32,000 bases of DNA, from assembly GCF_000010065.1 (NCBI RefSeq), contig NC_006576.1, positions 840,001 to 872,000 on the forward strand, read 5' to 3'. Shown piece after piece: positions 15,885-32,000 of this stretch. The stretch's first letter is position 1; the number at the start of each line of letters is the position of its first letter. A program made the position numbers and the translations under genes. The notes below the pieces were generated by a model. That model was not told where the DNA came from and did not search any database. It worked only from the letters and a program-made list of their open reading frames with translations. Source of the stretch: Synechococcus elongatus PCC 6301 (GTDB lineage Bacteria > Cyanobacteriota > Cyanobacteriia > Synechococcales > Synechococcaceae).

Positions 15885-16013
15885 GTTTTAAGTCGTCTTC
15901 AGTCTGCGATCGGAACAGCTTCAGCACGATCAGTACTTTTGCGATCGCCTACGCAATGAGCAAGGGACAGCAGACTTCGCAAGAATGGGAACTATTCTGG
16001 TTTCCCTCTCGCT

Positions 16014-18739: not shown

Positions 18740-19651
18740 TCACGGACTCGAGGCTAGATAGCCGTTACGCTCCAGAAAAGCACGCAGGGCTTCTGGGAAG
18801 TTGCGGTAGCGCACTTCTTTCCCCTTACAGCGACCTTGATCGTCGTAAGTCCCTAGGCATTCTTCCAGCCCCCACTCGGAGGGTTCATAGCGAGATTCCA
18901 CCAAGGCCCAAGCCTGAGGGAATTTGCCCAAGATGGCTTGAGTCGCGGCATAGCCCGCGAGAAGACCGTTGCTATCTGGCGATCGCGGCGGGGTCTCCTG
19001 AATTGCCTTGAGCATCCGCTCAGCAGCTTCTTCATGTAGACGACGGAACTGAGGCTGCTGCGAGACATTGATGAACTTGCCGTTCTGCAATTGCCAGACC
19101 TGCACGGGTGGGGAGCTACCGGCATAGGAGCTGAATTGATAAAGAAAGCGATTGTCGACATCCACAAATTCCGATTGCCCATCGCCATCAACATCAACGA
19201 GGGGATGAGGCCCCCCGTCAAAGCTGCCCAAAGCCAGCGATCGCCACTGTTTACCGCTGGGATCGCTACTGATCACTTCCACCTGATTGCAGCAGTGTGC
19301 TCCACCGGTGTAGTGCGAGATGATCACTTCTGGATAGGGATTGCTGGCGTCCATCTCAGCAATTTCCACCAGCGTGTCCATGCCTGGCAGATCAGGACGG
19401 AGAGCACGAAAAACAGTTTTGCCACTAACTTGCACTGTCACAACAGGCGGTGGGGGATCACCATCCGGCGTGGTGCTGCGTGGAACATTGATGCTGACAC
19501 TGACAGGATTCACCGTGAGCAGCTGTTCGCCGGGACCGCTACTTGAATTGAAGTTCAGCGTAGTGGCGGCTTGAGCGATCGCTGCACCATTACCACCCAA
19601 AAAGCTCAGGGCAAGCAGCCAAGCGCTGAGGTTTATTCGCATCTCCCACAC
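18740..19651 (-). CDS. Exported hypothetical protein with an FG-GAP/VCBS-like Asp-rich segment
   Basis: Signal peptide (LLALSFLGGNGAAIAQA); DVDGDGQSEFVDVDN. Its stop is immediately followed by the downstream ATG (TGAATG). Confidence 0.6.
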   Translation of the reverse strand: MWEMRINLSAWLLALSFLGGNGAAIAQAATTLNFNSSSGPGEQLLTVNPVSVSINVPRSTTPDGDPPPPVVTVQVSGKTVFRALRPDLPGMDTLVEIAEMDASNPYPEVIISHYTGGAHCCNQVEVISSDPSGKQWRSLALGSFDGGPHPLVDVDGDGQSEFVDVDNRFLYQFSSYAGSSPPVQVWQLQNGKFINVSQQPQFRRLHEEAAERMLKAIQETPPRSPDSNGLLAGYAATQAILGKFPQAWALVESRYEPSEWGLEECLGTYDDQGRCKGKEVRYRNFPEALRAFLERNGYLASSP

Positions 19652-19689
19652 CCCAATGAGCCTACCGATTCTGCCGCGATCGCCCTGCC

Positions 19690-20346
19690 CTAATCCGCAA
19701 TTTGCAACTGCTGACGAACCTCAGCTACAGGCAGCGCCCAGAAATGATCCCAGCGCTGCGCCAGCAACAGTTGTGGCGAATGGCGCCCCCGCCGAAAAGC
19801 ATCGGAAATCGCATCAACCAAGGCTGGGATGCGATCGGGCTGAGCCACCGAGGTGCGCAACAACCCCATACTGACCACAACCACGCTGAAGGGAATCGGC
19901 AGTTGTCCCATCAGAAAGGCTTGCAGGGCTACTTCACCCCGAGGATCAGTCCCCAACCCCGTCGCGATGTGGTGAAAATCGTGGGTGGTTCGCCAGAGTC
20001 GCTTGAAATAGCTCAGGTCATCATCGCCTTCAACCGGCGCAATTTGGATGACGTAGTCGGGGTCAAAGCCATTGCCGACCAGCATCTCCGCATAGACTCG
20101 ACCAAAACTACCCTCGGGGAGTTGCAGCAAGCTCGACAAGTTGAGTTCGGGCAGCACCCAGCGCTCCTCGAACAACTGGCCGGCAGCAGGATCATTGCGC
20201 AGCGCCTCAACCGTCAAGCGACCATATTCACCGGCCTCTAAGGCATCCTCAGCCGTGAAGAGACGACGGACGTCAAAGTCAGCCTCAAACAGACTTTGCA
20301 AGGCCGAAAATCCTTGTAATTGCTGTTCAAGCTGGGTGTCGATCAT
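19690..20346 (-). CDS. Coq4-family protein
   Basis: HDFHHIATGLGTDPRGEVALQAF matches the Coq4 HDxxH-x11-E zinc motif. The ATG at 20346 has AGGAG 8 nt upstream. Alternative starts are 20382 and 20478. Confidence 0.7.
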   Translation of the reverse strand: MIDTQLEQQLQGFSALQSLFEADFDVRRLFTAEDALEAGEYGRLTVEALRNDPAAGQLFEERWVLPELNLSSLLQLPEGSFGRVYAEMLVGNGFDPDYVIQIAPVEGDDDLSYFKRLWRTTHDFHHIATGLGTDPRGEVALQAFLMGQLPIPFSVVVVSMGLLRTSVAQPDRIPALVDAISDAFRRGRHSPQLLLAQRWDHFWALPVAEVRQQLQIAD

Positions 20347-20420
20347 CACAAAAACTCCTGCAGTATTCGAGGCTCGCTGCATCAGAGGCTGCAGCCCGAT
20401 CGCTTCAGATGAATCGAGGC

Positions 20421-20711
20421 TTAGCTGTCTTCGGCATTCGGCGGCTGGTGAGGCGACAGTGCGGGCAGGCGATAGCACTGTTCAAGGTAACGCTGCCGAT
20501 AGCAACGCCAGTAGTGAACAGGATTGAGAATAGCTCTGCGATCGCGCTGAAAAAGTGGCTGAGAAAGATAGTCCTTCCACGGAAATGCCAAGCTCCAGCC
20601 GGTAGTAGGCGAGAACATCAGACCGGCCCCCAGAAGAATGCAATAGAAATACTCTTGGCTCCAGTGTGCCCCGCGATTTTGGCCCCTACGACATATGCAA
20701 CAGTGCTTCAT
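20421..20711 (-). CDS. Small hypothetical membrane protein (Cys/Trp/Tyr-rich)
   Basis: 96-aa ORF with one hydrophobic stretch. No family recognised. Confidence 0.3.
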   Translation of the reverse strand: MKHCCICRRGQNRGAHWSQEYFYCILLGAGLMFSPTTGWSLAFPWKDYLSQPLFQRDRRAILNPVHYWRCYRQRYLEQCYRLPALSPHQPPNAEDS

Positions 20712-20835
20712 TTAAGCCAGCAAGTACCCTAAACGCTAGCCATCCCAGGGCGCGATCGCGACGCCAGTACAATCCACTGAGGTGAAGCGGCGATCTGACA
20801 CAAACCCATGAAGGGCGATCGCGTCGGTAGACAGC

Positions 20836-20870
20836 AAAAAGCCGCTCTAGGGCTGACCCAAAGCGGCTTT
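20836..20870 (-). terminator. Intrinsic terminator downstream of the tRNA-Leu sequence
   Basis: On the minus strand: AAAGCCGCU - 15-nt loop - AGCGGCUUU, followed by UUG. Confidence 0.7.
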
Positions 20871-20880
20871 CGTTTTGTGA

Positions 20881-20963
20881 TGGGCAAGGTGGGACTCGAA
20901 CCCACACACTATCGCTAGCGGCAGATTTTGAGTCTGGATAGTCCGCACCTTAAACCCTTGCTC
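20881..20963 (-). tRNA. tRNA-Leu(CAA)-derived sequence. The 3' two-thirds are canonical and the 5' D-arm region is non-canonical, so it is probably an att-site remnant or pseudo-tRNA.
   Basis: Minus strand: ...CAGA CTCAAAA TCTGC (anticodon CAA), long variable arm CGCTAGCG..., T-arm GTGGG TTCGAGT CCCAC, acceptor 3' strand CTTGCCC plus A73. The putative 5' acceptor strand GAGCAAG pairs at 6 of 7 positions. I can fold no convincing D-stem or GG D-loop. Confidence 0.6.
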
Positions 20964-21020
20964 AGCAATTATTCTTGGGCGATGTTCAGGTCAGTGGACT
21001 AAAAAGGGGCGGATAGTGGA

Positions 21021-21455
21021 CTAGCTCAGCGCTGCCAGAAGGTCAGCTTTCCGCATGCGGCTCCAGTTCGGAATCTGGCGCTGCTGAGCGATCGCCTTCA
21101 GCTCGCGGATGGTCATCGAAGCGCAGACAGTCGGGATGTTTGCATCGACAGCAGCGGTGTGCGTCTGAACCATGTAGACCGTCAGTGCCCAAGGCTCGAT
21201 CGCAGCGCGTAGTGCGGGGGCCTCTTCGCCCAGTTGCTCAGCCACGAATCGGCGGAAGCCGTACTCAGCGATCGCGACGCGGTGTGCCAGGTGAGTGTTG
21301 TACCAGCGGCGAGCGATGCGACCGGCCACGATGGTGCGCCCTGCCCAGCGTCCGAGGTGACGGCCAGCGACGGGAGCGTACTCAGCGATGACTGCGCAGG
21401 CCAGCATCAGCATCAGCTGGGCGAGGCCTGCGGTATGGGTGAATGTATTTTTCAT
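21021..21455 (-). CDS. Phage hypothetical protein with a C-terminal Rho_N/HeH-like motif
   Basis: C-terminus MTIRELKAIAQQRQIPNWSRMRKADLLAAL resembles the Rho N-terminal / SAP-HeH helix-extension-helix motif. The internal ATG at 21455 is preferred over the track start. Confidence 0.55.
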   Translation of the reverse strand: MKNTFTHTAGLAQLMLMLACAVIAEYAPVAGRHLGRWAGRTIVAGRIARRWYNTHLAHRVAIAEYGFRRFVAEQLGEEAPALRAAIEPWALTVYMVQTHTAAVDANIPTVCASMTIRELKAIAQQRQIPNWSRMRKADLLAALS

Positions 21456-21830: not shown

Positions 21831-22478
21831 TCAGGGTTTCAGGCAGCGATCGAGGAGCAGCTCTTTGGTGCTGAGCAGCCAGTTGCAGAGTGTGTCTGCC
21901 TGTTTGGCGAGACTGCGATCGCGGCTGAGTCGGTTGATCTGCGACAGCGCATAGATCGCCTGCACCATCCCAAACTGGAAGTCGCTCAGGAGTTCAGCAT
22001 CGGTCTTTGCTGCCGGATTGGACTGCGTGAAGCGGCCACTTTCGTCGCGGTTCCGATGCCAGTCAGCGGGCGCTGTCGTCTTGCGCCGGAGTGGCACAGG
22101 CTGCGAGGTGGGCAGCGCTGCAGTGGGCAGGGCTTTTTGATCGCGCTCCTCGGACTCGCGAATCCTCAGGTAGAAATACTCTTGGGCAGCAGCCACTGAG
22201 CGCTTTCTTGGGTCGGAGTTCATCGCCACGAGGTATGCCGCCAAGCGCGATAGCCTGTAGTCCTCTCTCGGGCGTCCGCCTGTTTTGAACTTTGTTATCG
22301 TGCGGCTGAAGTGATCTGCTACATGCTTCCCACGGCGCTGGCATGAGATGATCGCGCGATCAATGGCGTTGGTGAAATGCTGCCAGTGCGGGTAATCCAG
22401 AAAACCCATCAGCTCGCGCCCATTCCAGAACTCTTGGCCGTTCTCGACGTGGCGAATGCTGTCAAACGGTGAAGTCAT
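21831..22478 (-). CDS. DNA damage-inducible protein D-like (DinD / BRO-N domain)
   Basis: PFDSIRHVENGQEFWNGRELMGFLDY..W..F..AIDRA...C and YRLSRLAAYLVAMNSDPRKRSVAAAQEYF closely follow the DinD pattern as I recall it. Confidence 0.7.
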   Translation of the reverse strand: MTSPFDSIRHVENGQEFWNGRELMGFLDYPHWQHFTNAIDRAIISCQRRGKHVADHFSRTITKFKTGGRPREDYRLSRLAAYLVAMNSDPRKRSVAAAQEYFYLRIRESEERDQKALPTAALPTSQPVPLRRKTTAPADWHRNRDESGRFTQSNPAAKTDAELLSDFQFGMVQAIYALSQINRLSRDRSLAKQADTLCNWLLSTKELLLDRCLKP

Positions 22479-22540
22479 TGTTCAGTTATCCAGAAAATTG
22501 GTGATTGGGCTGTGTCGCTAGATCCGAACGGTTCGGGAAA

Positions 22541-22819
22541 TTAGCCGATGCAGACGTAGACGCCGCGTGAGCGAACTAATGCGTAAGTGGTGCCGTGTCG
22601 GTCTTCGTAGGTCTTCGGCGCTTCGTCGATCGGATAAGCGCGGCCTTGGCAATAGACGACACGGCAGTACAGCTCACTGGCTGGCAAGGGCTGATGGCAA
22701 TGCGGGCAGGTCTCCCAGCGATGAAGCGCTGGCAACAGCGGGCCAGCTTCCGGAAATTCGTGCGCGGTTCGGTAAGCCGCCTGATGGGCAGCCTTGTCGA
22801 TGTCGAATGAAGGATTCAT
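22541..22819 (-). CDS. Phage hypothetical protein (CxxC-containing)
   Basis: Internal ATG at 22819 (MNPSFDID...); CPHCHQ and YCRVVYC. The longer track ORF would run through the divergent HTH gene. Confidence 0.45.
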   Translation of the reverse strand: MNPSFDIDKAAHQAAYRTAHEFPEAGPLLPALHRWETCPHCHQPLPASELYCRVVYCQGRAYPIDEAPKTYEDRHGTTYALVRSRGVYVCIG

Positions 22820-22841
22820 GATTGTTGTGTTCGAAAGGACA

Positions 22842-22879
22842 AGAAAGGCGGCTTGCTTACCAGGCGGGGTCGCCTTTCT
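22842..22879. repeat. R0: hairpin element in the divergent intergenic region, a degenerate relative of R1-R4
   Basis: AGAAAGGCG - 20 nt (contains CCAGGC) - CGCCTTTCT, then TCTATG. It resembles GAAAAC..CCCAGCC..GTTTTCC..CTTGCTATG of R1. Confidence 0.35.
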
Positions 22880-22962
22880 TCTATGCCTAGAGTTACAGCA
22901 CCATATGCTGCTGTCAATATGCAGGGCTGATAAAATTTGAGGTACCAAGAGAGGAGAGGTCG

Positions 22963-23181
22963 ATGAAAGTGCGTTGTAAGCTACCGGAGCTAATCCGAGA
23001 TGCAGGCTTAACACAAGGAAGAGTGGCAACAGAAGCAGGGCTGAGCCCCGTGACTGTGAGTAAGCTGTGTCGTCAACACTTCAGCCAGATAGACGTTGAA
23101 ACGGTTTACAAGCTATGCCGCTTCTTCCAGCTCAAATCAATTGATGACCTGTTAGAAATTGAGCGTAGCGAGCCTTCTTGA
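22963..23181 (+). CDS. XRE/Cro-type helix-turn-helix regulator (paralog 1)
   Basis: MKVRCKLPELIRDAGLTQGRVATEAGLSPVTVSKL...LCRFFQLKSIDDLLEIE is the short XRE HTH pattern. Confidence 0.8.
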   Translation: MKVRCKLPELIRDAGLTQGRVATEAGLSPVTVSKLCRQHFSQIDVETVYKLCRFFQLKSIDDLLEIERSEPS

Positions 23182-23195
23182 GTTTCCTCGCTTGA

Positions 23196-23240
23196 CCGCG
23201 AAAACTCCTCCCAGCCTGCGTTTTCCGTTTCTCTTCTTGC
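23196..23240 (+). repeat. R1: conserved ~40-bp inter-cassette element
   Basis: ccgcGAAAACtcCTCCCAGCCTGCGTTTTCCGTTTCTcttcttgc, about 15 nt after the HTH1 stop. Confidence 0.8.
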
Positions 23241-23272
23241 TATGAAACCGCTTTTAGCGTTATCAAAAGCCG

Positions 23273-23512
23273 ATGAAAGTGCGTTGCTACCTAAGAGAAC
23301 TGATGGAAGAGCGAGGGCTTGATCAGAAGTCCTTGGCGATCGCAGCTGGCTTAGGCGTAACGACCGTGAGCCGCCTTTACAAGAACCGGTTTGACCGCGT
23401 GGACGTGACGACACTGACAAAGCTGTGCAAGTTCTTCCAGCTCAAGTCAGTTAACGAACTTTTAGATATCGAAGTAGAAGATGAAGATCCGAGGTCTCAA
23501 GACCCTTGGTAG
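23273..23512 (+). CDS. XRE/Cro-type helix-turn-helix regulator (paralog 2)
   Basis: MKVRCYLRELMEERGLDQKSLAIAAGLGVTTVSRL...LCKFFQLKSVNELLDIE. The first 14 nt of the CDS are identical to paralog 1. Confidence 0.8.
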   Translation: MKVRCYLRELMEERGLDQKSLAIAAGLGVTTVSRLYKNRFDRVDVTTLTKLCKFFQLKSVNELLDIEVEDEDPRSQDPW

Positions 23513-23557
23513 AGTTTTTATTGACGCCAATAAAAAGCCTCTGACCTTTTTGGCGAC

Positions 23558-23605
23558 CCCGCCGAAAAACCCTCCCAGCCTGCGTTTTCCGTTTCTATTT
23601 CTGTT
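23558..23605 (+). repeat. R2: conserved ~40-bp inter-cassette element
   Basis: cccGCCGAAAAAcCCTCCCAGCCTGCGTTTTCCGTTTCTATTTCtg. Confidence 0.8.
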
Positions 23606-23618
23606 AGTAAATACCCTT

Positions 23619-23879
23619 ATGAAAAATTACGCTGTGCCAAACATTGCGGCGCTTAGGAAGCGCACTGGGCTGAGCCAAACGCAGCTGGCTAACATCGTTG
23701 GCGTTGACCCTGTGACAATCCGCAACTGGGAAAGAGGGCGATCGGGCCTTGACTGGTTTGTGAAGCTCGCCAAGTTGTGCGAAGCACTTGACTGCTCTCC
23801 TCGTGACTTAGTCAAGGATCCGGACAGTGAATCAAAAAAGGTGCCACGGACAGTTAATGAGCTTTTTGCAAGCTTCTAA
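23619..23879 (+). CDS. XRE-type helix-turn-helix regulator (divergent third copy)
   Basis: LRKRTGLSQTQLANIVGVDPVTIRNWERG...LAKLCEALDCSPRDL. The internal ATG at 23619 is preferred, because the upstream part of the track ORF reads through R2. Confidence 0.78.
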   Translation: MKNYAVPNIAALRKRTGLSQTQLANIVGVDPVTIRNWERGRSGLDWFVKLAKLCEALDCSPRDLVKDPDSESKKVPRTVNELFASF

Positions 23880-23896
23880 AACTTTTTACGGGACGT

Positions 23897-23940
23897 GCCT
23901 GAAAAGCTCTCCCAGCCTACGTTTTCCGTTTCACTTCTCA
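23897..23940 (+). repeat. R3: conserved ~40-bp inter-cassette element
   Basis: gcctGAAAAGctCTCCCAGCCTaCGTTTTCCGTTTCacttctc, about 18 nt after the HTH3 stop. Confidence 0.8.
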
Positions 23941-23950
23941 TCACAAAAGC

Positions 23951-23984
23951 AAAGCCCCAAGTGTAGACCGAGGGGCTTTTTTGT
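23951..23984 (+). terminator. Rho-independent terminator
   Basis: AAAGCCCC - 13-nt loop - GGGGCTTT, followed by TTTTG. The composition switches to AT-rich immediately after it. Confidence 0.7.
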
Positions 23985-24306
23985 TAGATGAGGTGCTTTC
24001 AAATCGCTTTCTAGTGTTTTTATGACTACTAAAGCACTACATATAGTGTCTATTGTGTGATGTAATTCGCCTTGCTAACGAAAAGTGGAAAGCTTCGATA
24101 GTATGAAGTCGGAGCTTGTTAAGTCTCGCTTGGGGCGAAGGTATGCCGTATCTACCTGGAACAGGTCAAAACATAGAACGAATGGACGCCTGTTGAGTTA
24201 TCAAATTCGTGCGCTGAAATCAGTATAAGTCAAGAAAAATAGAACTTCTATAACAAGCTAATCCTATGTTAGGTCTGCGGGAGTAGGACGTCTGAGGGAA
24301 TTTCAC

Positions 24307-24858
24307 ATGGCTCTGGAATCAAGGGACAAATTAAAATCATTGGTTCACTACATTTGTAGTAAACGATCAGGTTCTCCGAGCCTGGGCTCAACCAAGCTGA
24401 ATAAGATTCTTTGGTTTCTCGATAGTATTGTTTACCGACAAACAGGAAAACCAATTACAGGTGCAAAATACAAAAAACTTCAACATGGTCCAGTACCAGT
24501 AGATATTCTTGCGATCCAAAAGGAATTGGAATCAGAAGGTAAGATATCTGTTAGTTATGACAGGTCTTACGGATTTGGATTCCGCACAACAATATATACT
24601 TCTTTGCAAGAGCCCGACAAAAGCTTGCTTGAAGAAGACGAACTCAAATTTGTAGATATTGTCATTTCACGGATCTGCGACGGCCACACAGCCAGATCCA
24701 TCAGCGAGCATTCGCATGACGTTATCTGGGAGGCTGCCGCCATGGGTGAGGAGATACCTCTTGAGGCAGTTTTAGCGTCAGAGGAAGCTCCACTAGAGCC
24801 TGAAGATATAGATTGGGCTCGTGGCGTCATCCGAAAACGGAAAGAAGGAATTGCTTAA
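24307..24858 (+). CDS. Panacea/SocA-like (DUF4065) antitoxin-domain protein
   Basis: GSTKLNKILWFLDSIVYRQTGKPITGAKYKKLQHGPVP matches the DUF4065 core pattern (KLxKLLYf.D ... G.P.tg..y....GPv). Confidence 0.72.
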   Translation: MALESRDKLKSLVHYICSKRSGSPSLGSTKLNKILWFLDSIVYRQTGKPITGAKYKKLQHGPVPVDILAIQKELESEGKISVSYDRSYGFGFRTTIYTSLQEPDKSLLEEDELKFVDIVISRICDGHTARSISEHSHDVIWEAAAMGEEIPLEAVLASEEAPLEPEDIDWARGVIRKRKEGIA

Positions 24859-25172
24859 TGCAAGGCGGGTCATGGTTTGCCAAGTCAATCATAGAGTCCG
24901 AAGAAACGATAAGAGTAAAGGATTATGCGTCTAGTGAATTTTGGCGCTTTGATTCAGCCTGGAACGGTATTACTTGGCGACTTGCAAGACAAGCTCATTT
25001 GATGGGGACGGAGATTGGCGGATACAGGGTATATAAATTCCCTGGAATTGACGCAGGCGGTGAATCTGTCCCATCCATGGTCTTGGTCTTTGAAGTCCGG
25101 GAGGATGAAGTAGAGATAATTGATTTGCGGATAGGCCCCCCTGTCGCTGACACCTACGAGCTGGATTGGTAG
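24858..25172 (+). CDS. Small unassigned protein translationally coupled to the DUF4065 gene (candidate toxin partner)
   Basis: Its ATG overlaps the upstream stop (TAATG at 24856-24860). 104 aa. The C-terminal YRVYKF...MVLVFEVREDEVEIIDLRI is only loosely reminiscent of RelE/ParE-fold strands. Confidence 0.55.
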   Translation: MQGGSWFAKSIIESEETIRVKDYASSEFWRFDSAWNGITWRLARQAHLMGTEIGGYRVYKFPGIDAGGESVPSMVLVFEVREDEVEIIDLRIGPPVADTYELDW

Positions 25173-25231
25173 TAGCAATCTACTGATAATTCAAGAGATC
25201 ACCTAGCCTTTTGATAGTTTAGGATAACCCA

Positions 25232-25272
25232 GCCGAAAAGCCTGCCCCATCATCGTTTTCCATTTCTATTCA
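25232..25272 (+). repeat. R4: diverged copy of the inter-cassette element
   Basis: GCCGAAAAgcCtgCCCcatcatCGTTTTCCaTTTCTATTc shares GCCGAAAA, CGTTTTCC and TTTCTATT with R2. Confidence 0.65.
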
Positions 25273-25360
25273 GGCTGCCAATTCACTTGTTAGAAGTTAA
25301 ATGTTGTGCTTCTGACAAACCTCAATACGTGGTTTACACACACAATTTTAGGTTCTGATC

Positions 25361-26089
25361 ATGCTGACAGATAATCATGAGGCTTTTTTCTCACCATCTA
25401 ATAACCAAACAATTTGGCGCTATATGGACTTCACAAAGTTCATTAGTTTACTTGAAACCCAAAAGCTTTTCTTTGCTAGGTTAGACCAGTTTGAGGATCC
25501 CTACGAAGGCACTTGGTCAAATGCAGGCATTCAAGTTCTTCGAAACCAAGTACAAATTGGTGCTTTCTCAAATAATGCTGCTGAACAATTAATCAATTTT
25601 CAGGATATTCAGAGGAAAATAATGTTTATCAGTTGTTGGCATGCCAATGAGTTTGAATCAGCAGCAATGTGGAAACTCTATCTAAATAGCAATGAAGGTG
25701 TTGCTATTAAAACTGATTACAATACACTCGCAATCAGCCTAGAAAGTGCACCACTAAAAGCGGGGATATCAATGGTGAGATATATTGATTATGACAATGA
25801 AGTAATTCCATTCAATAACATTTTTTATCCCATTACTCACAAAAGACGTAGTTTTGCCCATGAAAAAGAGCTTAGGGCAATTATGTGGACGCCAGAAGCC
25901 ATTCAAGATCCAGACAAGATACTAAATTCAGTTACTGTTGATATCTTGCCGTCTCAACTTATACAGTCTGTATATGTATCACCAACCGCACCTAGGTGGT
26001 TTGGTGAGTTAGTCGACAATGTGGCTCGCCGTTATAGTCTAGAAGTTCCTGTTATTCACTCAGATCTCTATAACCGACCTGTTTTCTAA
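25361..26089 (+). CDS. DUF2971 family protein
   Basis: IWRYMDFTKFISLLETQKLFFARLDQFEDPYEG matches the N-terminal DUF2971 pattern (l.rY......l..l....l.fs....f.DP.E). Confidence 0.6.
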   Translation: MLTDNHEAFFSPSNNQTIWRYMDFTKFISLLETQKLFFARLDQFEDPYEGTWSNAGIQVLRNQVQIGAFSNNAAEQLINFQDIQRKIMFISCWHANEFESAAMWKLYLNSNEGVAIKTDYNTLAISLESAPLKAGISMVRYIDYDNEVIPFNNIFYPITHKRRSFAHEKELRAIMWTPEAIQDPDKILNSVTVDILPSQLIQSVYVSPTAPRWFGELVDNVARRYSLEVPVIHSDLYNRPVF

Positions 26090-26314
26090 ACTGCTAAGTC
26101 TTTCAACCTATCAGAAGAGATATTAATTTTGTTCTTTTTGAAGATACTCTTCCCGACTAGGTAATAATGACATTGGGAGTTGAACTTCTTACTAGTTGCT
26201 GTAATTACTAGATATCTTAGCTACTTAACTAAAAAGTTTTAGTAACGATAGAATTCTAAGGTTTTACTTGTAATTTTGCATAAAATAAAGTTTGGATCTT
26301 CCAGAACAAAAAAC

Positions 26315-26907
26315 TTACCAAACACTAGATGCTGTTCTGACAGACAGATATTTCTGATTAAGTATTTCGTAAAAATTACCTCTTTTATTAATAATTTTAT
26401 CTAGTTCTTTAGCATCAAAGGTTATCACAACTATTTTATCCTTAACCTAGGCATTACGAATGATTTGTTTTGCATCTTTCGTGATGCCATTTGTAGCAAA
26501 AAAAATTCCAATATTAGCGTCAACATCCCGCATTTTGGAGCAGAAAGTTCTTAACTCACATGCACCTACTGTTTTTTGCCAATTTTTACATTCAACGATT
26601 AGTAAATAAGAAAATTCAAAGAAAAGAGTAGCTTCAATTCGTTTTACGGTAAAGTCTAAATCTATTTCTCCTGTTTCACACCTCCTTCTTTTACTATTAA
26701 GCTTTAGAATAAGGAGATTCTAGAAAATTATGAGCTAGCTCCTCAAGAACTAAACCAAGGTCATCATCTTCTCTTGGTTTATTTACTCTTGACAGTAAAT
26801 CAGTAAGCAAATCTCTAGACTTATTAATTTTCTCATCTAATACTATCTCAGGGGTACAGCTTCAACTTATCAAAGAGAGTTAAATCTTGGTGTGAGTTAT
26901 CTCCCAC
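26315..26907 (-). pseudogene. Mrr-type (Mrr_cat / PD-(D/E)xK) restriction endonuclease-like gene with multiple frameshifts and an in-frame TAG
   Basis: AGGAGG plus a GTG at 26907 opens a 19-codon frame. After a frame change comes ...DLLTDLLSRVNKPREDDDLGLVLEELAHNFLE. After another frame change comes GEIDLDFTVKR...LLIVECKNWQKTVGACELRTFCSKMRDVDANIGIFFATNGITKDAKQ (D..ExK core). Then a TAG at 26447-49, then VKDKIVVITFDAKELDKII. Confidence 0.7.
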
Positions 26908-26916
26908 TCTAGCCTC

Positions 26917-27654
26917 CTAAATCCGAGTTAAGACAATCTGATTATCTTGCAATTCTCGTGATTTAGAATCTTGATCTAACTCAAAAGTTTCATTAAATGA
27001 GTAGGTTAAAAATATATTTTTCTCGGAAACTTCAAACTCGTGAGAACAATGACTGCATTTATTCTCTTCATTCAAAGGTATATCTCTATAACTAGAGTAA
27101 ACTTCTATGGTTTCCTGACAATTTGGGCAGACAAGTTCAAATTGTTCTGTGAGGTACCCTAATCTCACTAACCTTGAAATAGTCTCTATCCATTTTCCTT
27201 CATCTAAGCTAAAGCCAAGTGTTTGATAGATTCGTGGGTTAAATCTTTTTCCATATCCATGGCTGCGAATAGCATGAATAAGTGATTGAATAACATTTTC
27301 ATCTGACGTGGTTACATCTGACTTTAAGCCTAATTTTTTCAATGATGGTAAAAACTTTATTTTGTGCACAATTGAAAAGACATACTCAATAAGCTCTTCA
27401 GGAACATCACTCATAAACCATATATTCCCTTGGCTACTAATATGCAAAGAAGACTCGATTATTTTTCTCGAATAAGAAGTATAGAGAAACTCTAGACGGG
27501 TTTCTCTTAAGTCCCCTTGAGCAAAATAATTTGTATATTCTTCAGATGCATCTAAGTCATCTAAATCAGGAGAGGCAGAGACATAGATTGTATCAATATC
27601 TCCACCAAATCTCTTATATTTTGTAGCTTTTGATTTCCCATTGAGTTCGTTGTT
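26917..27654 (-). CDS. Unassigned protein with a C-terminal zinc ribbon. The frame is open upstream of the TTG start and overlaps the end of the preceding ORF, so it is possibly the 3' half of a split gene.
   Basis: The track ORF 26917..27447 starts at TTG. The same frame stays open to 27654 and encodes a plausible peptide (KRFGGDIDTIYVSASPDLDD...). Zinc ribbon: CPNCQ-x18-CSHCSH. Confidence 0.5.
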   Translation of the reverse strand, partial: NNELNGKSKATKYKRFGGDIDTIYVSASPDLDDLDASEEYTNYFAQGDLRETRLEFLYTSYSRKIIESSLHISSQGNIWFMSDVPEELIEYVFSIVHKIKFLPSLKKLGLKSDVTTSDENVIQSLIHAIRSHGYGKRFNPRIYQTLGFSLDEGKWIETISRLVRLGYLTEQFELVCPNCQETIEVYSSYRDIPLNEENKCSHCSHEFEVSEKNIFLTYSFNETFELDQDSKSRELQDNQIVLTRI

Positions 27655-28297
27655 TTAAAAGCAAAATATCTTGATTAGTAAAAGTCATAGGTTCTATTTC
27701 TATGCCGAGCAACAATGACATCGAGTTGTACAGCATTTCACTTTCGCGAATACTAGCTCTTGTCTCGACAACAAAAGTTGTATCTAGAAGCCTAATGTAA
27801 GAATTTAAGCGCTTAGTAGGAATAACTATGCGTCTTTCATAATTATCTTCGATTTCATATTTTTTCCCAGCACAAACAAATTCAAGACGCAATAAATTTC
27901 CACTGATCCATTCAGCACTGTTAAAGGCAGGCTTTTGAGTAAGTTGAGGCCTTATTTCGTTCTTGAATGGATCAGCTGAGTTTCTATCTTGAATGATCTT
28001 GCTGAGCTCATTTCTAGATAGTATTCTCCTCTCTAGGGGTATACCCCAGCAAACTGAAACTCTACCTGCAAATTTATAAGATTGAATCAGTTTAATAATG
28101 CTATTGATGTCAATAGCATTTTGGTCAAGAAGTATTTGTACTTCATTGATAAGAGCATCTTTTGTAGTATGTTTTGGCAGATCTTGCCCACCATCGGCAT
28201 CACCCAATAATTCTTGAAGGGCTTTAACAGGAACATACTTATCTAGCTCCTGAAGAAGGGGAAAGAATCCTAAGTTATTGGAAGACTGCTCTTTCAT
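27614..28297 (-). CDS. Unassigned protein (227 aa), possibly the 5' half of a frameshift-split gene
   Basis: ATG-initiated ORF in AT-rich cargo. No motif I can assign. Its last 41 nt overlap the open upstream extension of the next ORF in the +1 frame. Confidence 0.55.
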   Translation of the reverse strand: MKEQSSNNLGFFPLLQELDKYVPVKALQELLGDADGGQDLPKHTTKDALINEVQILLDQNAIDINSIIKLIQSYKFAGRVSVCWGIPLERRILSRNELSKIIQDRNSADPFKNEIRPQLTQKPAFNSAEWISGNLLRLEFVCAGKKYEIEDNYERRIVIPTKRLNSYIRLLDTTFVVETRASIRESEMLYNSMSLLLGIEIEPMTFTNQDILLLKQRTQWEIKSYKI

Positions 28298-28489
28298 GCC
28301 GAGGCAATTAATTCAAAAGGTAATATCATTAATCCTGTTGGCCTTATTTTAGCCTAAACATACCCAAAGTGAGCTGCTCAGAATTAAAGTAAAGTAATAC
28401 TTATAGATTTATTGAGATTTAAGACAACTTAGGCAAAATAAGTAATAGTCAGTAGTCTAGAAGAATAAAAAATTATCTCAAGAACAATC

Positions 28490-28912
28490 TTACTTGAGAT
28501 GCTTAACTGAAGCACTAGTCAACTCTTGTAACTTAGATGCCACTTCCACTCTATGACATCTTGAGAAATCCATCTCTGCACAGAGCAATAAAATGTTTCC
28601 AGTCTCAAGCATCTCAGCAACTTCGCATAAGGTTTGCTTAGCTGCTTCAGGTTCAGGTGGAATCCAATGACTACTACCTGACAAATTACCTAGCGATGAC
28701 TTAGAAACATATTGAATATTTTCAGAGGTGCAAAGCTTTTGAAGAGCATCTCCGTACCACATTCTAGACCAGGCACGTGGCTTCAATCTTACATCGACTA
28801 CACAGGTGACACTAAATTCTCTAAGACAAGAAAGAAAAGCATCATAATTTTTTCGGTTTCCGTAACCGAAGGTCAGCACTGTCTTGCTTTCAGAAGTTGC
28901 TAAATCAGGCAT
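28490..28912 (-). CDS. DUF488 family protein
   Basis: LTFGYGNR, FSVTCVVDVRLKPR and ILLLCAEMDFSRCHR follow the DUF488 pattern (T.GHs.r..e.F...L......lvDVR..P ... LlC.E.....CHR). Confidence 0.75.
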   Translation of the reverse strand: MPDLATSESKTVLTFGYGNRKNYDAFLSCLREFSVTCVVDVRLKPRAWSRMWYGDALQKLCTSENIQYVSKSSLGNLSGSSHWIPPEPEAAKQTLCEVAEMLETGNILLLCAEMDFSRCHRVEVASKLQELTSASVKHLK

Positions 28913-28913
28913 T

Positions 28914-29729
28914 TTACAAGTCCAGTAAGCTCAGAGTTTGTACATCAGTTTCTCGGGAGTTTTTTGGAGGGTAAAATATTCCTATAATCATAAAAACTTT
29001 GCAATGCTGTTTGAGATTACCTACTATAAAATAAATATCTTTTTTAGACAAGAACTCATTTTCTAGCTTCTCTCTAACCTTGGATAAGGATTCTAATTCT
29101 CTTCCCTCTAGACTGGAAGCATTAGATTTATCTCGACACTTTCTATAAAGTTCGCAGATCTCCCAGTCGCTTATTGAGTACGAACGTTTTTTGTTATCTA
29201 CTTCAGTAAATTGGTAGCCAAACTGGTAAGGTATTTTCTCTAGATTCAACGAAGGCTCGAACAAATCACCCTGATCTTGAATAGCTCTTTGCTTTGGGCT
29301 CCACTCACGTTCAGTTTCTCTGCAAAAATATTTTTCTATACTTCTGGGCTTAATTATGCCTAAAGATTTTCCTTGTGCTTGTATTTCAGCGATAGATCTG
29401 AATTGCAAAGGTAATACAAAAGACTTACGCTCTTCCCAGTTATTTTTGGTTCCTATGTGCCTGACTACATCTATTGAAGTATCATTAATCCGATAACTTT
29501 CTTCTCGATAGTCTTTCTCATTTCTTTCGACTTCTGCACTAATAATCGACCATCTCTTATAACGCTTGTCGAAGTCTAGATTTCGAAATCTCACTGGATA
29601 AATTCGAATCCACTGGACGGGTTTTTCATTGGCATCCAGAAGAATTCCTGCAGTACAAACAGTTTCCTTATACTTGGTACTAATAGATGGATAGGTTTTA
29701 GTTGCAATTAGGATCTTTCGTCTTTCCAT
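28914..29729 (-). CDS. Unassigned 271-aa protein, first gene of a two-gene operon with DUF488
   Basis: Clean ATG ORF. Its stop TAA (28914-16) is separated by 1 nt from the DUF488 ATG (28912). I recognise no catalytic or family motif. Confidence 0.65.
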   Translation of the reverse strand: MERRKILIATKTYPSISTKYKETVCTAGILLDANEKPVQWIRIYPVRFRNLDFDKRYKRWSIISAEVERNEKDYREESYRINDTSIDVVRHIGTKNNWEERKSFVLPLQFRSIAEIQAQGKSLGIIKPRSIEKYFCRETEREWSPKQRAIQDQGDLFEPSLNLEKIPYQFGYQFTEVDNKKRSYSISDWEICELYRKCRDKSNASSLEGRELESLSKVREKLENEFLSKKDIYFIVGNLKQHCKVFMIIGIFYPPKNSRETDVQTLSLLDL

Positions 29730-29766
29730 CTACGTCATGAATCACATATTTTTAGCTAAGCCACCA

Positions 29767-29794
29767 TAATACTTTCTCTTGAGTCTTTGTTAAA
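29767..29794 (-). promoter_or_regulatory. Candidate sigma70-type promoter for the 271-aa/DUF488 operon
   Basis: Minus strand: TTAACA (29794-29789), a 16-nt spacer, then TATTAT (29772-29767), about 35-40 nt upstream of the ATG at 29729. Confidence 0.35.
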
Positions 29795-29946
29795 AAGCAA
29801 AATATGACCTTTTCATCTCAGATCAATGAATACATGAGAGTTAAACACTATCTGTAGTGGCCAAGTAGTTTTGATAGCCACTATCTTGTGTTTCTTATCG
29901 AGAGAATTAATCTCACTTCTCAGCTAACTGTTGCCTCGGCTCCTCT

Positions 29947-29972
29947 CAAAACACCCCCAGCCGCTGTCTGCA
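29947..29972 (+). repeat. R5: possible half-copy of the inter-cassette element at the right GC boundary
   Basis: caAAACacCCCCAGCCgctg shares AAAA-n-C..CCCAGCC with the left half of R1-R3. The right half is not conserved. Confidence 0.3.
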
Positions 29973-30000
29973 CCTATTGAGCGATCGCACCAATCAAGCC

Positions 30001-30465
30001 CTAGGCAAACGGGTCTTGATTACTGCCCATCATGCGGCTGAGACGTCGGGCACGCTCACCCACCTGGTCAGCCCAGAGGCTGTTCAGCATCTCATCAGCT
30101 GCCTCGGCGTAGCGTCCGGCCTCAATGTGGCCTAGGGTCTTACGGAAGCGAAGCAGGCCGTCGATACCCAGATTAATTGCCATGTCGATCAGCACTCGCT
30201 GACGCACCCACGAAAGCTGTCTAACCCAAGGCAGGCGCGACTCAAGCTGTCGCATTGCGTGGTCGATGTCGCTCACCAGCAGCAACCGCGCTTCAGCCTC
30301 ACTGATGCCGCGGTCGTCCAGATTGCGACCGATGCCAATCGTCAGCCTGCCCGCCGTGCAGCGGTACGGCTTCAGCCGCAAGCCCTCATGCAAGGTCAAC
30401 TGCCGAATCAGGTCGACACGCTCGCCGGTAAGTTGGTCTGCAATCGTGCGGATGCGGTCACTCAT
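30001..30465 (-). CDS. Phage lysozyme (glycoside hydrolase family 24, T4-lysozyme type)
   Basis: LTLHEGLRLKPYRCTAGRLTIGIGRNL (catalytic E, then the D/T region), typical of GH24 endolysins. Confidence 0.85.
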   Translation of the reverse strand: MSDRIRTIADQLTGERVDLIRQLTLHEGLRLKPYRCTAGRLTIGIGRNLDDRGISEAEARLLLVSDIDHAMRQLESRLPWVRQLSWVRQRVLIDMAINLGIDGLLRFRKTLGHIEAGRYAEAADEMLNSLWADQVGERARRLSRMMGSNQDPFA

Positions 30466-30638
30466 TTCTTCGCTCTTGCGCCAAGGAACCCTGCCGCAAA
30501 CTCAACCGCTCGATAGACCCCACCCAGCACCTGATTATCCTTAGGCGTTGGGGTCAAATTCACAATCACCAGCGCGGCCGCATGGACGTACAGAAATACC
30601 GTGAAAATCTCATCCTTGTGCTGGAGGATTTGAGACAT
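30462..30638 (-). CDS. Small hydrophobic phage protein (58 aa), coupled to the lysozyme gene
   Basis: My own translation: MSQILQHKDEIFTVFLYVHAAALVIVNLTPTPKDNQVLGGVYRAVEFAAGFLGARAKK. Its stop overlaps the lysozyme ATG (ATGA at 30462-65). It is below the track length cutoff. Confidence 0.45.
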   Translation of the reverse strand: MSQILQHKDEIFTVFLYVHAAALVIVNLTPTPKDNQVLGGVYRAVEFAAGFLGARAKK

Positions 30639-30667
30639 GGAGTTTGTGAAAAATCAACACCCCAATT

Positions 30668-30862
30668 CTAATTACCCCCATCATCCTTGTCTTGGCTTCG
30701 AGGGGTCATCAGAGCAAACAGCGACGAGACGTAGATCATCGTCAGCTCAGCGAAGCGCGGCCGAAGCTCCTTGTCCTGGTAGGCCATGACGCTGAAGGCG
30801 ATGAACAGCAGCGTTGCCAGCCCAGCCAGCACATTGAACCGCTGCCGATCATCGCTGCTCAT
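30668..30862 (-). CDS. Holin-like small membrane protein (64 aa, two hydrophobic segments)
   Basis: The internal ATG at 30862 overlaps the M15 stop (ATGA). FNVLAGLATLLFIAFSVMAY and MIYVSSLFALM are hydrophobic; the C-terminus is charged. Confidence 0.5.
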   Translation of the reverse strand: MSSDDRQRFNVLAGLATLLFIAFSVMAYQDKELRPRFAELTMIYVSSLFALMTPRSQDKDDGGN

Positions 30863-31440
30863 CAGTAGTCCCAAACCCCTTTCGGCCCGTCGTCGAGGTG
30901 CACGAACCGGCGACCAGCTTTGATGCCGCGACCCACGCCGCCGTTCCAGTTCTGCTCGCACCACTGTTCGAACTCAAGCGGATTGAACTGGAGTGGGGAC
31001 ACATCAGCCGCGCCGCCAGTCAGGTGATAGCTGTCGTCAACACCACCAACCCGAGCGTTAGTCACCGGGTCGCGGAACCAAGACGTGACACCCAGCGGGC
31101 CGAACTGCTTACGGAGTACGTCGAGCCGTGCAGCCAGCTTCACGATCCGCCGCTTGTTCTCAGCAGTCACCCGCTGCCTACGGAAGTCATCGAACTGGAA
31201 CACCTCGCCCACCGTGAAGTGCTCAGAAACGCGAGCATCCCACTCACTCCACTGAACCGTCTCAGCCGTGAGTGGTTGCGCGTTCGCCGTGCGGTAGGTC
31301 TTGACCCACTCGGCACTGTCCCGCATGGCAGCGTCGGGAATCACACCCGCCAACATATAGGCAGCCCGGCGATGGTTAGGGTTGTTGGGGTCGAAGTGGA
31401 TGAAGAAATCGAGGAACTTATCAGCCGTAATGGTGCTCAT
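30862..31440 (-). CDS. Peptidase M15-family (D-Ala-D-Ala carboxypeptidase-like) cell-wall hydrolase
   Basis: SWFRDPVTNARVGGVDDSYHLTGGAADV plus a downstream HLDD match the zinc-binding H..D...H arrangement of M15A phage peptidases. Confidence 0.8.
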   Translation of the reverse strand: MSTITADKFLDFFIHFDPNNPNHRRAAYMLAGVIPDAAMRDSAEWVKTYRTANAQPLTAETVQWSEWDARVSEHFTVGEVFQFDDFRRQRVTAENKRRIVKLAARLDVLRKQFGPLGVTSWFRDPVTNARVGGVDDSYHLTGGAADVSPLQFNPLEFEQWCEQNWNGGVGRGIKAGRRFVHLDDGPKGVWDY

Positions 31441-31670
31441 TGGGCAGTCTTCAACTCCAAGTCCCTAACGCGCCGTTCCAGCTCCACAAGCTGCGCACTG
31501 GTGTTCTTGGCGATTTCAAGGATCCGCGTTTGGCTGGCCTTGATTTCGATGATGCTGGCCTACATCGCCCACAGCAGACCAACGATCGCCAGAAAAGAAC
31601 TAGCCAAGATGGTTGGTGCCGCGCCAGCGAATACACGGTCAAGCGTGGAATGCTCTTTGCTTTCACCCAT
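31437..31670 (-). pseudogene. Small TM plus coiled-coil phage gene interrupted by an in-frame amber codon
   Basis: My own translation: MGESKEHSTLDRVFAGAAPTILASSFLAIVGLLWAM, then TAG (31560-62), then ASIIEIKASQTRILEIAKNTSAQLVELERRVRDLELKTAQ. Its stop overlaps the M15 ATG (ATGA). Confidence 0.5.
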
Positions 31671-31709
31671 CTCTTTAGATTCCAGTGAAGTTCTGTTGCG
31701 CTGACAACC

Positions 31710-32000
31710 TCATTTTAAGCGGTAGTAGCGAATTGGCCCACTGTAGAAACCTTGGTACTCAGACGGTGAGGCGAGCCTCGTTCTCGTGGGTCGCGAGCTG
31801 CTGTTGCTGATAACCCTTCCCCCATCACAGGTCACGATCCCAATGTGCGCCTGGGGTGGGTTGCCGCCATCAGTGAAGATTGCGATAGCGCCCGGCTCAG
31901 GACCGCTGACTTGTTGAGCACCAGAGCGCCGCAGCGCCGCCTCCGCATCAGGGACGTAGTTCGACCCGCCCCACGGTGTCGTGAGCCCTGCCTTTTGAAA
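31710..32000 (-). CDS. Partial CDS (N-terminus beyond the window); CHAP/NlpC-P60-like or TIGR02594-like cell-wall hydrolase C-terminus
   Basis: My own translation: ...GPEPGAIAIFTDGGNPPQAHIGIVTCDGGRVISNSSS...RYYRLK, stop at 31710-12. This is the 'G.iv.f....H.GIV' pattern of CHAP-like amidases. Confidence 0.35.
   Translation of the reverse strand, partial: FQKAGLTTPWGGSNYVPDAEAALRRSGAQQVSGPEPGAIAIFTDGGNPPQAHIGIVTCDGGRVISNSSSRPTRTRLASPSEYQGFYSGPIRYYRLK

Follow-up and report, generated by a model that had tools for sequence, protein, structure and literature searches.

The 32,000-nucleotide stretch of the Synechococcus elongatus PCC 6301 chromosome analysed here (NC_006576.1, positions 840,001 to 872,000; hereafter the window) raises the question of how a segment of about 6 kb, AT-rich and lacking the cyanobacterial octamer HIP1 (GCGATCGC), comes to lie inside a prophage, and of what the genes that it carries may do there. 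In this study, we show that this island is a mosaic and not one insert, and our analysis indicates that it is probably an accessory, moron- or defence-like region of the 49-kb S. elongatus prophage which was built piecemeal from small AT-rich mobile cassettes. Aligned to the S. elongatus PCC 7942 chromosome (CP000100.1), the window matches the reverse strand at ~740-772 kb with 99.9% identity. According to Adomako et al. (2022, PMC9239245), the prophage of the "legacy" strains spans 49 kb (711,254-759,991; Synpcc7942_0716-0767), is integrated in tRNA-Leu, is lacking from UTEX 3055, and can be made to excise by overexpression of the antirepressor 0766. Its end falls at about window position 20877, so that window positions 1-20877 are host DNA. 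The island has lysis genes on one side and the immunity operon on the other, and the island was present in every assembly that has the prophage.

The unusual composition as such has been published before. Foreign genes in PCC 7942 have been sought by HIP1 scarcity, codon usage, and G+C content (Delaye et al., 2011, PMC3025956), and codon usage flagged a SIGI-HMM island at 751,277-758,324, the start of which is exactly the annotated start of Synpcc7942_0757. That island, "section 7" of the legacy prophage (PMC3025956; PMC9239245), is the same DNA as the one described here, and its genes 0759 and 0760 have been linked to pigmentation (Adomako et al., 2022, PMC9239245). Term searches of both papers returned neither two GC tiers or a cassette structure, nor a recurrence of the AT-rich DNA in other cyanobacteria or a reading of its genes as toxin-antitoxin or defence candidates. 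What is new here is firstly the two-tier, multi-cassette structure of the island, secondly the AT-rich and mostly HIP1-free character that the cassettes keep in unrelated cyanobacterial hosts, and thirdly the candidate assignments, with their parallel in a Gordonia phage and a previously unannotated partner of PanA.

Composition and edges of the island

In 500-nt windows, G+C content (GC) was 0.32-0.45 within 24001-30000 and 0.49-0.63 elsewhere, and a maximum-likelihood fit of two change points delimited a block at 23830-29920 (GC 0.374 inside vs 0.572 outside, log-likelihood gain 391), with edges 155 and 25 nt from those given in the initial annotation of this DNA. Recursive segmentation resolved two tiers, 22806-25255 with a GC of 0.463 and 25256-29920 with a GC of 0.353. 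The left edge is stepped and the right edge is sharp, at ~29920-29950, which is 50-80 nt past the lysozyme stop codon at 30001; the abrupt change that the initial annotation placed right after the terminator gives way, on the left, to a step through the GC 0.463 tier. Because this left tier begins at 22806, the three helix-turn-helix (HTH) genes of the immunity operon are already atypical, and together with the PanA toxin-antitoxin pair they form the intermediate GC tier. Core island genes had a G+C at third codon positions (GC3) of 0.23-0.33, vs 0.60-0.68 in those of the host and 0.72-0.79 in the structural genes of the phage, and the GC1, GC2, and GC3 of the island fit a background of ~35% GC. 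With GC, GC3, and HIP1 all deviating, the island has the composition of a horizontally acquired genomic island, and the low-GC segment first noticed in the sequence is confirmed by GC windows, change-point fit, and GC3 alike. The right junction (29730..30000, - strand) contains the GC switch, a 7-bp inverted repeat (29857-29883), a promoter-like -35/-10 match for 0757 (29793-29766), and the first HIP1 site to follow the gap (29981-29988).

HIP1 occurs at 62 sites in the window, where 1.06 would be expected by chance, and at none between 23344 and 29980. The resulting gap measures 6645 nt, the next-largest being 1430 nt, and would be expected to hold 15.7 sites at the host rate of 2.59 per kb (P ~1.5e-7) and 10 at the prophage-backbone rate of ~1.7 per kb (P ~4.5e-5). 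The HIP1-free gap reported in the initial annotation is thus real (0 sites vs 10-16 expected), and so is the presence of HIP1 in the flanking prophage genes (backbone ~1.9 per kb, ~60 times chance). Low GC alone is insufficient to account for the absence of HIP1, because a Pseudanabaena flank of 41% GC has 2.1 HIP1 sites per kb. As a caveat, the right flank within the window (29946-32000) has only one HIP1 site. A HIP1 site that is present in PCC 7942 at window 31882-31889 (8577-8584 of the PCC 7942 locus, L001) is destroyed in the window by T for G at 31887, and the HIP1-poor look of the right flank is in part due to this loss.

A transposon with mobility genes or clear terminal repeats was considered and rejected, since no transposase or integrase was found within 22400-30700 and the sole flanking inverted pair, of 17 nt, sits in coding sequence. 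This pair (16/17 complementary, 22775-22791 and 30023-30039) encloses the whole atypical region, the 5' part of 0765 holding one arm and the lysozyme gene holding the other at its 3' end; inverted pairs like it arise in ~2% of block shuffles. A second inverted pair lies inside the island (26272-26293 and 27352-27373).

Cassettes and their recurrence in other genomes

The cargo of the island is arranged along two opposed transcription directions. On the + strand, the immunity operon consists of three XRE genes and a terminator, followed by the genes for PanA, a toxin candidate, and a DUF2971-like protein. On the - strand, the end of the late/lysis operon consists of the lysozyme gene followed by 0757-0758 and then by 0759-0760. 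The two cargo-bearing directions meet in a convergent spacer (26090..26314, assigned to neither strand), the most AT-rich part of the island (GC 0.25-0.30), and because they meet there the cargo can be said to hang off the 3' ends of the immunity and late operons. We propose that small self-contained cassettes probably accreted piecemeal at this point of convergence in the prophage, and that they were drawn from a pool of AT-rich mobile genes circulating among cyanobacteria and their phages.

In other genomes, the cassettes of the island occur separately and never together. The pair formed by 0757 and a DUF488 gene was found in Leptolyngbya boryana (76% and 68% identity), in Microcystis aeruginosa, and in two assemblies from metagenomes or sequencing runs, where it lies between core genes or beside toxin-antitoxin or NLR-like genes. 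The pair formed by 0759 and an Mrr_cat nuclease gene was found at four loci in total, in the filamentous cyanobacterium CCP1 (71% and 72% identity) beside a tyrosine integrase gene, in Pseudanabaena, and in another assembly among them. PanA with a small partner of 103 amino acids (aa) was found in a HIP1-rich cyanobacterium of 56-58% GC (57% and 44% identity; loci L181 and L182). The named closest homologues of the island proteins are all cyanobacterial (Leptolyngbya, Microcystis, Planktothrix, Nostoc, Pseudanabaena, and CCP1) and are 55-76% identical to them, and metagenomic proteins reach 81%. Single-protein scans of IMG/VR with 0757 and 0759 returned nothing, which is a weak negative given that the method needs shared 8-residue words.

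The composition of the cassettes is maintained across these hosts. Outside S. elongatus, cassette GC is 0.33-0.45 vs 0.41-0.58 in the flanks, cassette GC3 is 0.24-0.36 vs 0.34-0.59 in the neighbouring genes, and HIP1 is absent from every cassette but one, though the flanks reach 2.1 sites per kb. The 0759-Mrr cassette of run ERR9580665 (locus L179, 10001-11967) has acquired two HIP1 sites and, at 0.40, a slightly raised GC, and it is the only copy of any cassette that shows signs of amelioration. The PanA pair is kept at ~45% GC and the other cassettes at 33-40% GC in every host, and GC is not higher in the S. elongatus copies than elsewhere. The cassettes therefore show no measurable amelioration in S. 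elongatus, which fits a short residence in this lineage, and to this extent the initial description of foreign, un-ameliorated accessory cargo within a prophage (~35% GC background, GC3 0.23-0.33, no HIP1) is borne out. The composition of the cassettes is nevertheless silent on the donor genome, because the same genes look alike inside HIP1-rich hosts, and AT-rich coding is not required by the proteins, because the copies in a Gordonia phage have a GC3 of 0.71. Low GC and missing HIP1 mark the cassettes as mobile without identifying where they came from. If this account of the island is true, the finding that cassettes of ~35% GC are almost always HIP1-free in hosts of 41%-61% GC would mean either that shuttling between cyanobacteria outpaces amelioration or that AT-richness is selected.

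Candidate functions of the cassettes

The initial annotation read the gene content of the island correctly as a toxin-antitoxin pair, a DUF2971 gene, a nuclease, and a DUF488 gene. Judging from their domains and contexts, these cassettes may be lysogen-expressed toxin-antitoxin or anti-phage (superinfection-exclusion) modules. The neighbours of the cassettes elsewhere, which are toxin-antitoxin, NLR-like, and integrase genes, are in favour of such a role, and three of the cargo genes have PHROG families. As for recognised anti-phage systems, a PADLOC search of the island gave only PDC-S31, PDC-M19B, a partial PDC-M19A, and a weak mREase_IV match (8.7e-4), none of which is a validated system. 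Tentatively, as many as three cyanobacterial systems of anti-phage or addiction type, all of them uncharacterised, might be present in the island, formed by the tandem-OB protein with DUF488, by 0759 with 0760, and by a new PanA-partnered toxin family.

The gene 0762 (24307..24858, + strand; GC 0.43) encodes a PanA antitoxin candidate of 183 aa with a SocA_Panacea domain (1.5e-14; 55.3 bits vs a cut-off of 25.7) that also matches phrog_1281. Its stop codon is overlapped by one base by the start codon of an open reading frame for a PanT toxin candidate of 104 aa (24858..25172, + strand), which is uncalled on the PCC 7942 record (L001) and called in run assembly SRR29904085 (L002). The 104-aa protein has no match in Pfam, NCBIfam, or PADLOC; it belongs to a family of 27 representatives, the nearest of which, 44% identical, is again encoded directly after a Panacea gene (L181 and L182). 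A relationship to RelE/ParE toxins was also considered and rejected, as 1/27 family members matches ParE_toxin, at E = 0.094, and no PDB profile matches. Two hallmarks of a PanA-PanT pair are present, namely the Panacea (DUF4065) antitoxin domain and a bicistron with a one-base overlap and a conserved adjacent partner, and PanA may neutralise the 104-aa toxin candidate. The gene that follows, 0761 (25361..26089, + strand; GC 0.38), encodes a DUF2971-like protein of 242 aa which matches PDC-S31, a PADLOC single-gene defence candidate, over its full length (4.8e-25, residues 13-240) and phrog_34615 at 4.4e-61, and which has a homologue, 34% identical, in an Acinetobacter phage.

On the opposite strand, 0757 (28914..29729, - strand) encodes a predicted tandem-OB-fold protein of 271 aa that is matched over its full length by PDC-M19B (1.1e-72) and also by phrog_25907 (1.3e-52). 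The gene is annotated with 226 aa, and its homologues support 271 aa. The AlphaFold2 model of the protein (pLDDT 82) resembles the tandem OB-fold DNA binders RPA, LEF-3, HIN, and Teb1 in Foldseek, with probabilities of 0.91-0.99. For the Pfam name DuOB, no relevant literature was found. The protein has 537 homologues, and a DUF488 gene follows that for the homologue at loci L173-L178; the pairing is kept in 6 cyanobacterial loci and in one actinophage. The partner in the window, 0758 (28490..28912, - strand), encodes 140 aa with a DUF488 domain (Pfam, 2e-16) and has partial matches to PDC-M19A and PDC-M45B in PADLOC. The predicted fold suggests that 0757 could be the nucleic-acid-binding partner of the DUF488 protein. 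A strong drop in fitness under RSF1010 selection has been reported for cells that lack 0757 (PMC10653904).

The third cassette comprises 0760 (26315..26907, - strand), of 196 aa in PCC 7942, and 0759 (26917..28297, - strand), of 459 aa in PCC 7942. The former encodes a PD-(D/E)xK nuclease with an Mrr-type catalytic domain (Pfam Mrr_cat, 1.8e-08; 34.9 bits vs a cut-off of 21), and its D...E-C-K catalytic motif is kept in three orthologues. No second domain, for the recognition of modified DNA, was detected in its 196 aa, and the 459-aa zinc-ribbon protein is its constant partner instead; it may act like a nuclease effector and is not classed as a type IV enzyme. The product of 0759, which no known family covers, carries a CxxC...CxxC zinc ribbon at its C-terminus; the named ones among its 34 homologues are all cyanobacterial, and an Mrr_cat gene always comes after that for the 0759 homologue (L171, L172, L179, and L180). 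The 0760 nuclease may be regulated or targeted by 0759.

PCC 7942 and two independent run assemblies have both genes intact. In the window, single-base insertions at 26709 and 26854 break 0760 and another at 27649 breaks 0759. Over 12 kb the window differs from CP000100 by these 3 insertions and by 8 substitutions (26448, 27533, 27739, 27818, 23345, 23848, 30998, and 31887), all unique to the window, and 7/11 of the differences fall within 26448-27818. The first published PCC 6301 genome is documented to have carried >1000 apparent single-nucleotide polymorphisms and indels, of which the majority were attributed to sequencing error (PMC9239245), and for this reason the frameshifts in 0759 and 0760 are probably errors of the source assembly. 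The term "nuclease remnant" used in the initial annotation is therefore not appropriate to 0760, an intact Mrr-type gene of 196 aa in PCC 7942 and in both run assemblies, and the apparent pseudogenes of the window are probably sequence errors.

In the lysogen, 0759 and 0760 form one highly expressed transcription unit without which chlorosis does not occur; cloning of 0760 by itself in E. coli failed, and the native promoter of the operon drives its expression in the lysogen, the operon complementing the defect from a neutral site (PMC9239245). Expression in the lysogen and the failure to clone 0760 fit a toxic nuclease restrained by its partner, and chlorosis may be a side-effect of stress and not a dedicated pigment function. 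In the case of the three candidate systems proposed above, chlorosis could perhaps be regarded as the physiological cost of a leaky nuclease defence and not as the output of a dedicated pigment regulator, which we put forward with the same reserve. An alternative suggested in the published work, which we consider unlikely, is that the cargo serves the lytic programme, with 0759 and 0760 dismantling the light-harvesting complexes in an nblA-like manner and having no role in defence or addiction. It is in keeping with this that deletion of either gene abolishes chlorosis and that the operon at a neutral site complements the loss (PMC9239245), but nothing ties 0760, a small nuclease of the PD-(D/E)xK type whose motif is intact, to phycobilisome proteolysis, and expression of the operon is seen in the lysogen and not only upon induction (PMC9239245). 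Moreover, the 0759-Mrr pair lies elsewhere between core genes or by an integrase gene, with no phage genes called within <=10 kb per side, and chlorosis, being a general stress response, could arise as a side-effect of low-level nuclease activity.

Several observations weigh against a defence or addiction role for the cassettes and against their piecemeal accretion. The only tested phenotype of 0759 and 0760 is chlorosis, which has been read as phage manipulation of light harvesting (PMC9239245), and the structural model of 0759 is weak (pTM 0.54), as are its matches to CENP-N and Iml3. PDC-M19 and PDC-S31 have no more than the status of candidate families, and the anti-phage and toxin roles are predicted ones. 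The Pfam DUF2971 match of 0761, at 18 bits, is below the 22-bit cut-off, and 0758 matches only the last ~50 of the 294 positions of the PDC-M19A profile (1.2e-12). The RSF1010 fitness effect is not predicted by a simple sensor role of 0757. Promoter-like matches in the island are no commoner than in shuffled sequence, and the collections searched hold no close prophage relative that would show turnover of cargo at this site. On balance, we still regard the island as probably an accessory region assembled from mobile cassettes.

If 0759 and 0760 form a nuclease module, the published pigmentation result is to be read differently. S. elongatus PCC 7942 is a main cyanobacterial genetic model, its anti-phage and anti-plasmid repertoire is little known, and the locus offers three or four compact candidate systems open to existing genetics, one of them with a visible phenotype (chlorosis) and another with a fitness effect under RSF1010 selection.

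Origin of the island and comparison with known systems

Related phage contigs from IMG/VR and metagenomes (~60% amino-acid identity) keep the gene order sheath, tube, tape measure, gpU, gpX, gpD, and lysozyme, have a GC of 0.56-0.70 throughout, and have few or no HIP1 sites. The island genes and the XRE genes are absent from those compared, in agreement with the initial view of the block as an addition. In the closest relative, contig L029, which likewise has neither the island genes nor the XRE genes, the lysozyme gene and a Rho_N-domain gene are 1.9 kb apart vs 8.5 kb here, though L029 is too distant for a clean empty-site comparison. Searches with lysozyme of IMG/VR, GTDB genomes, and JGI metagenomes and with gpD of IMG/VR gave a best identity of 65%; the GTDB genome scan with lysozyme did not return S. 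elongatus itself. The backbone of the S. elongatus prophage has HIP1 at ~1.9 per kb, ~60 times chance (~1.6-1.9 per kb in the structural and lysis genes), and because of this the phage lineage must have been long in HIP1-making hosts. Its GC3 is above that of the host, and the backbone is thus HIP1-adapted but not matched to host GC. The description of the prophage as old and ameliorated does not fit this GC3, nor does it fit the lack of the prophage in UTEX 3055 and its continued ability to excise (PMC9239245).

The initial annotation attributed the segment to one recent insertion of ~6 kb from a single low-GC, HIP1-less organism into an old ameliorated prophage, an explanation that we consider improbable. 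The sharp right boundary, the complete absence of HIP1, and GC1, GC2, and GC3 values near equilibrium for a genome of ~35% GC would all be accounted for in this way, as would the fact that GC3 of the S. elongatus copies has not risen relative to homologues in lower-GC hosts. However, a single insertion from one donor does not agree with a composition that falls into two tiers (0.46 and 0.35), nor with four or more cassettes that are found apart elsewhere, and a donor outside the HIP1-bearing genomes does not agree with named closest homologues that are cyanobacterial, or with cassettes that are equally AT-rich in HIP1-rich genomes and HIP1-free there in all but one locus. It is very improbable that this phage region owes its low GC to a native function, whether in regulation or packaging or through selection for AT-rich DNA, and not to horizontal acquisition, for although the cassettes are AT-rich in every cyanobacterial host despite 20-50% protein divergence, which could reflect selection, related phages lack such a region, the same genes occur in unrelated chromosomal contexts, and the Gordonia phage copies of 0757 and DUF488 have a GC3 of 0.71. 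The account that remains best supported is that of cassettes accreted one by one between the immunity and lysis genes.

With regard to the flanks, the rightward (lysogenic) operon begins with a gene for an XRE-type HTH protein of 72 aa (22963..23181, + strand; GC 0.48), which has HTH_26/HTH_3 matches in Pfam and matches to transcriptional-repressor families in PHROG. This gene overlaps the long form of 0765 and may be unannotated. It is a tandem paralogue of 0764, a 79-aa XRE-type HTH gene recognised as an open reading frame with Pfam and PHROG support (23273..23512, + strand), through a 310-nt tandem duplication (direct repeats D2 and D4). In published work, the lysogenic operon is said to begin with the latter, which is named as the immunity repressor (PMC9239245; PMC10653904). 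The third XRE-type HTH gene, 0763 (23619..23879, + strand), matches Pfam HTH_3 (1.9e-10, residues 55-110) and PHROG repressor families; it is annotated with 132 aa and a start at 23481, and because its HTH domain begins after Met47 the product is likely to have 86 aa. The HTH operon is ended by an intrinsic terminator (23951..23984, + strand), a GC-rich stem followed by UUUUUU, as had been proposed initially; on the + strand it folds with a minimum free energy of -32.8 kcal/mol vs -25.6 in shuffles (z = -2.2), which supports that assignment, and a terminator-like motif match was obtained there as well.

Each of the three XRE genes is followed by a copy of a 49-nt direct repeat, D1 (23199-23247, 23563-23611, and 23900-23948, + strand), and a weaker fourth copy (25234-25282), found by repeat alignment like the others, follows the PanA pair and coincides with the GC change point at 25256. 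The 22-nt core of the repeat, CCCAGCCTGCGTTTTCCGTTTC, occurs 3 times vs 0 expected; a copy of the 49-nt repeat lies within the 5' extension of 0763, and the repeat is limited to S. elongatus among the 262 loci compared. It may represent an operator, the scar of a duplication, or the edge of a cassette. Its reading as a structured RNA was rejected, since its folding energies do not surpass those of shuffles unless the terminator is part of the folded sequence.

On the other side, the last backbone gene before the island is that for the phage lysozyme (30001..30465, - strand; Pfam Phage_lysozyme, 7e-12), which belongs to the flank and not to the cargo; the lysis genes on this strand are those for an M15 peptidase, two small open reading frames, and the lysozyme. 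Rfam, at its gathering thresholds, matched no RNA gene anywhere in the window, and no tRNA was detected there either, which fits an attR that is only a 60-nt partial copy of the tRNA. Run assembly SRR29904085 has window position 21074 fused directly to 15337 (junction at L002 19362-19389) and thus lacks window 15338-21073, 5.7 kb that include the prophage end.

Four known systems can be compared with the island. The first is the PanA-PanT family of toxin-antitoxin pairs (Kurata et al., 2022, PMC8832971). As there, a Panacea-domain protein is followed here by a small overlapping partner, and this pairing is also kept in another cyanobacterium at 57% and 44% identity. The candidate 104-aa partner, in contrast, belongs to no known toxin family.

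The second is found in the Gordonia phage Nymphadora (NC_031061.1), whose gp43 is 30% identical to 0757 and is encoded directly after the immunity repressor gp44. The adjoining gene 42 (L263 4822-5274), recorded as "HipA toxin, toxin-antitoxin system?", encodes a DUF488 protein (Pfam, 1.2e-29). In this temperate phage too, then, a 0757 homologue and a DUF488 gene are adjacent and come right after the repressor. The differences are that identity is 26-30%, that gp43 and gp42 are convergent and not co-oriented, and that the GC3 of 0.71 matches that of the phage. In actinophages, the position right after the repressor is where prophage-mediated defence genes are known to occur. A superinfection-exclusion or addiction module would be expected to look like this, as a pair that is kept in different phyla and placed where temperate phages are expressed in the lysogen, and by this analogy 0757 and 0758 may form one.

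The morons of temperate phages, described by Hendrix and colleagues, are extra transcription units that lie between backbone genes and have a composition unlike that of their flanks. The genes of the island are similarly extra with respect to related phages, differ strikingly in composition, and lie at the ends of operons, and at least one unit, 0759-0760, is transcribed in the lysogen from a promoter of its own (PMC9239245). They differ from morons in that several units are stacked into a block of ~6 kb and in that promoters and terminators are here consensus matches, save the experimentally used promoter of 0759-0760.

Lastly, there are the defence hotspots of P2-like phages and P4 satellites, among them one between cI and integrase in P2-related Vibrio phages (Rousset et al., 2022, PMC9122126). 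The prophage has a P2-type tail module (gpU, gpX, gpD), and its compact nuclease, toxin-antitoxin, and unknown-function genes lie, as in those hotspots, between conserved phage genes near the repressor. The hotspots, however, are defined by turnover among many related phages, whereas we describe candidate systems in one phage, and the island lies between lysis and immunity and not at the gpA-gpQ position known from P2. Taken as a whole, the feature is of an ordinary kind, that of stacked phage morons or of a prophage defence-type locus, in which some of the cassettes are uncharacterised.

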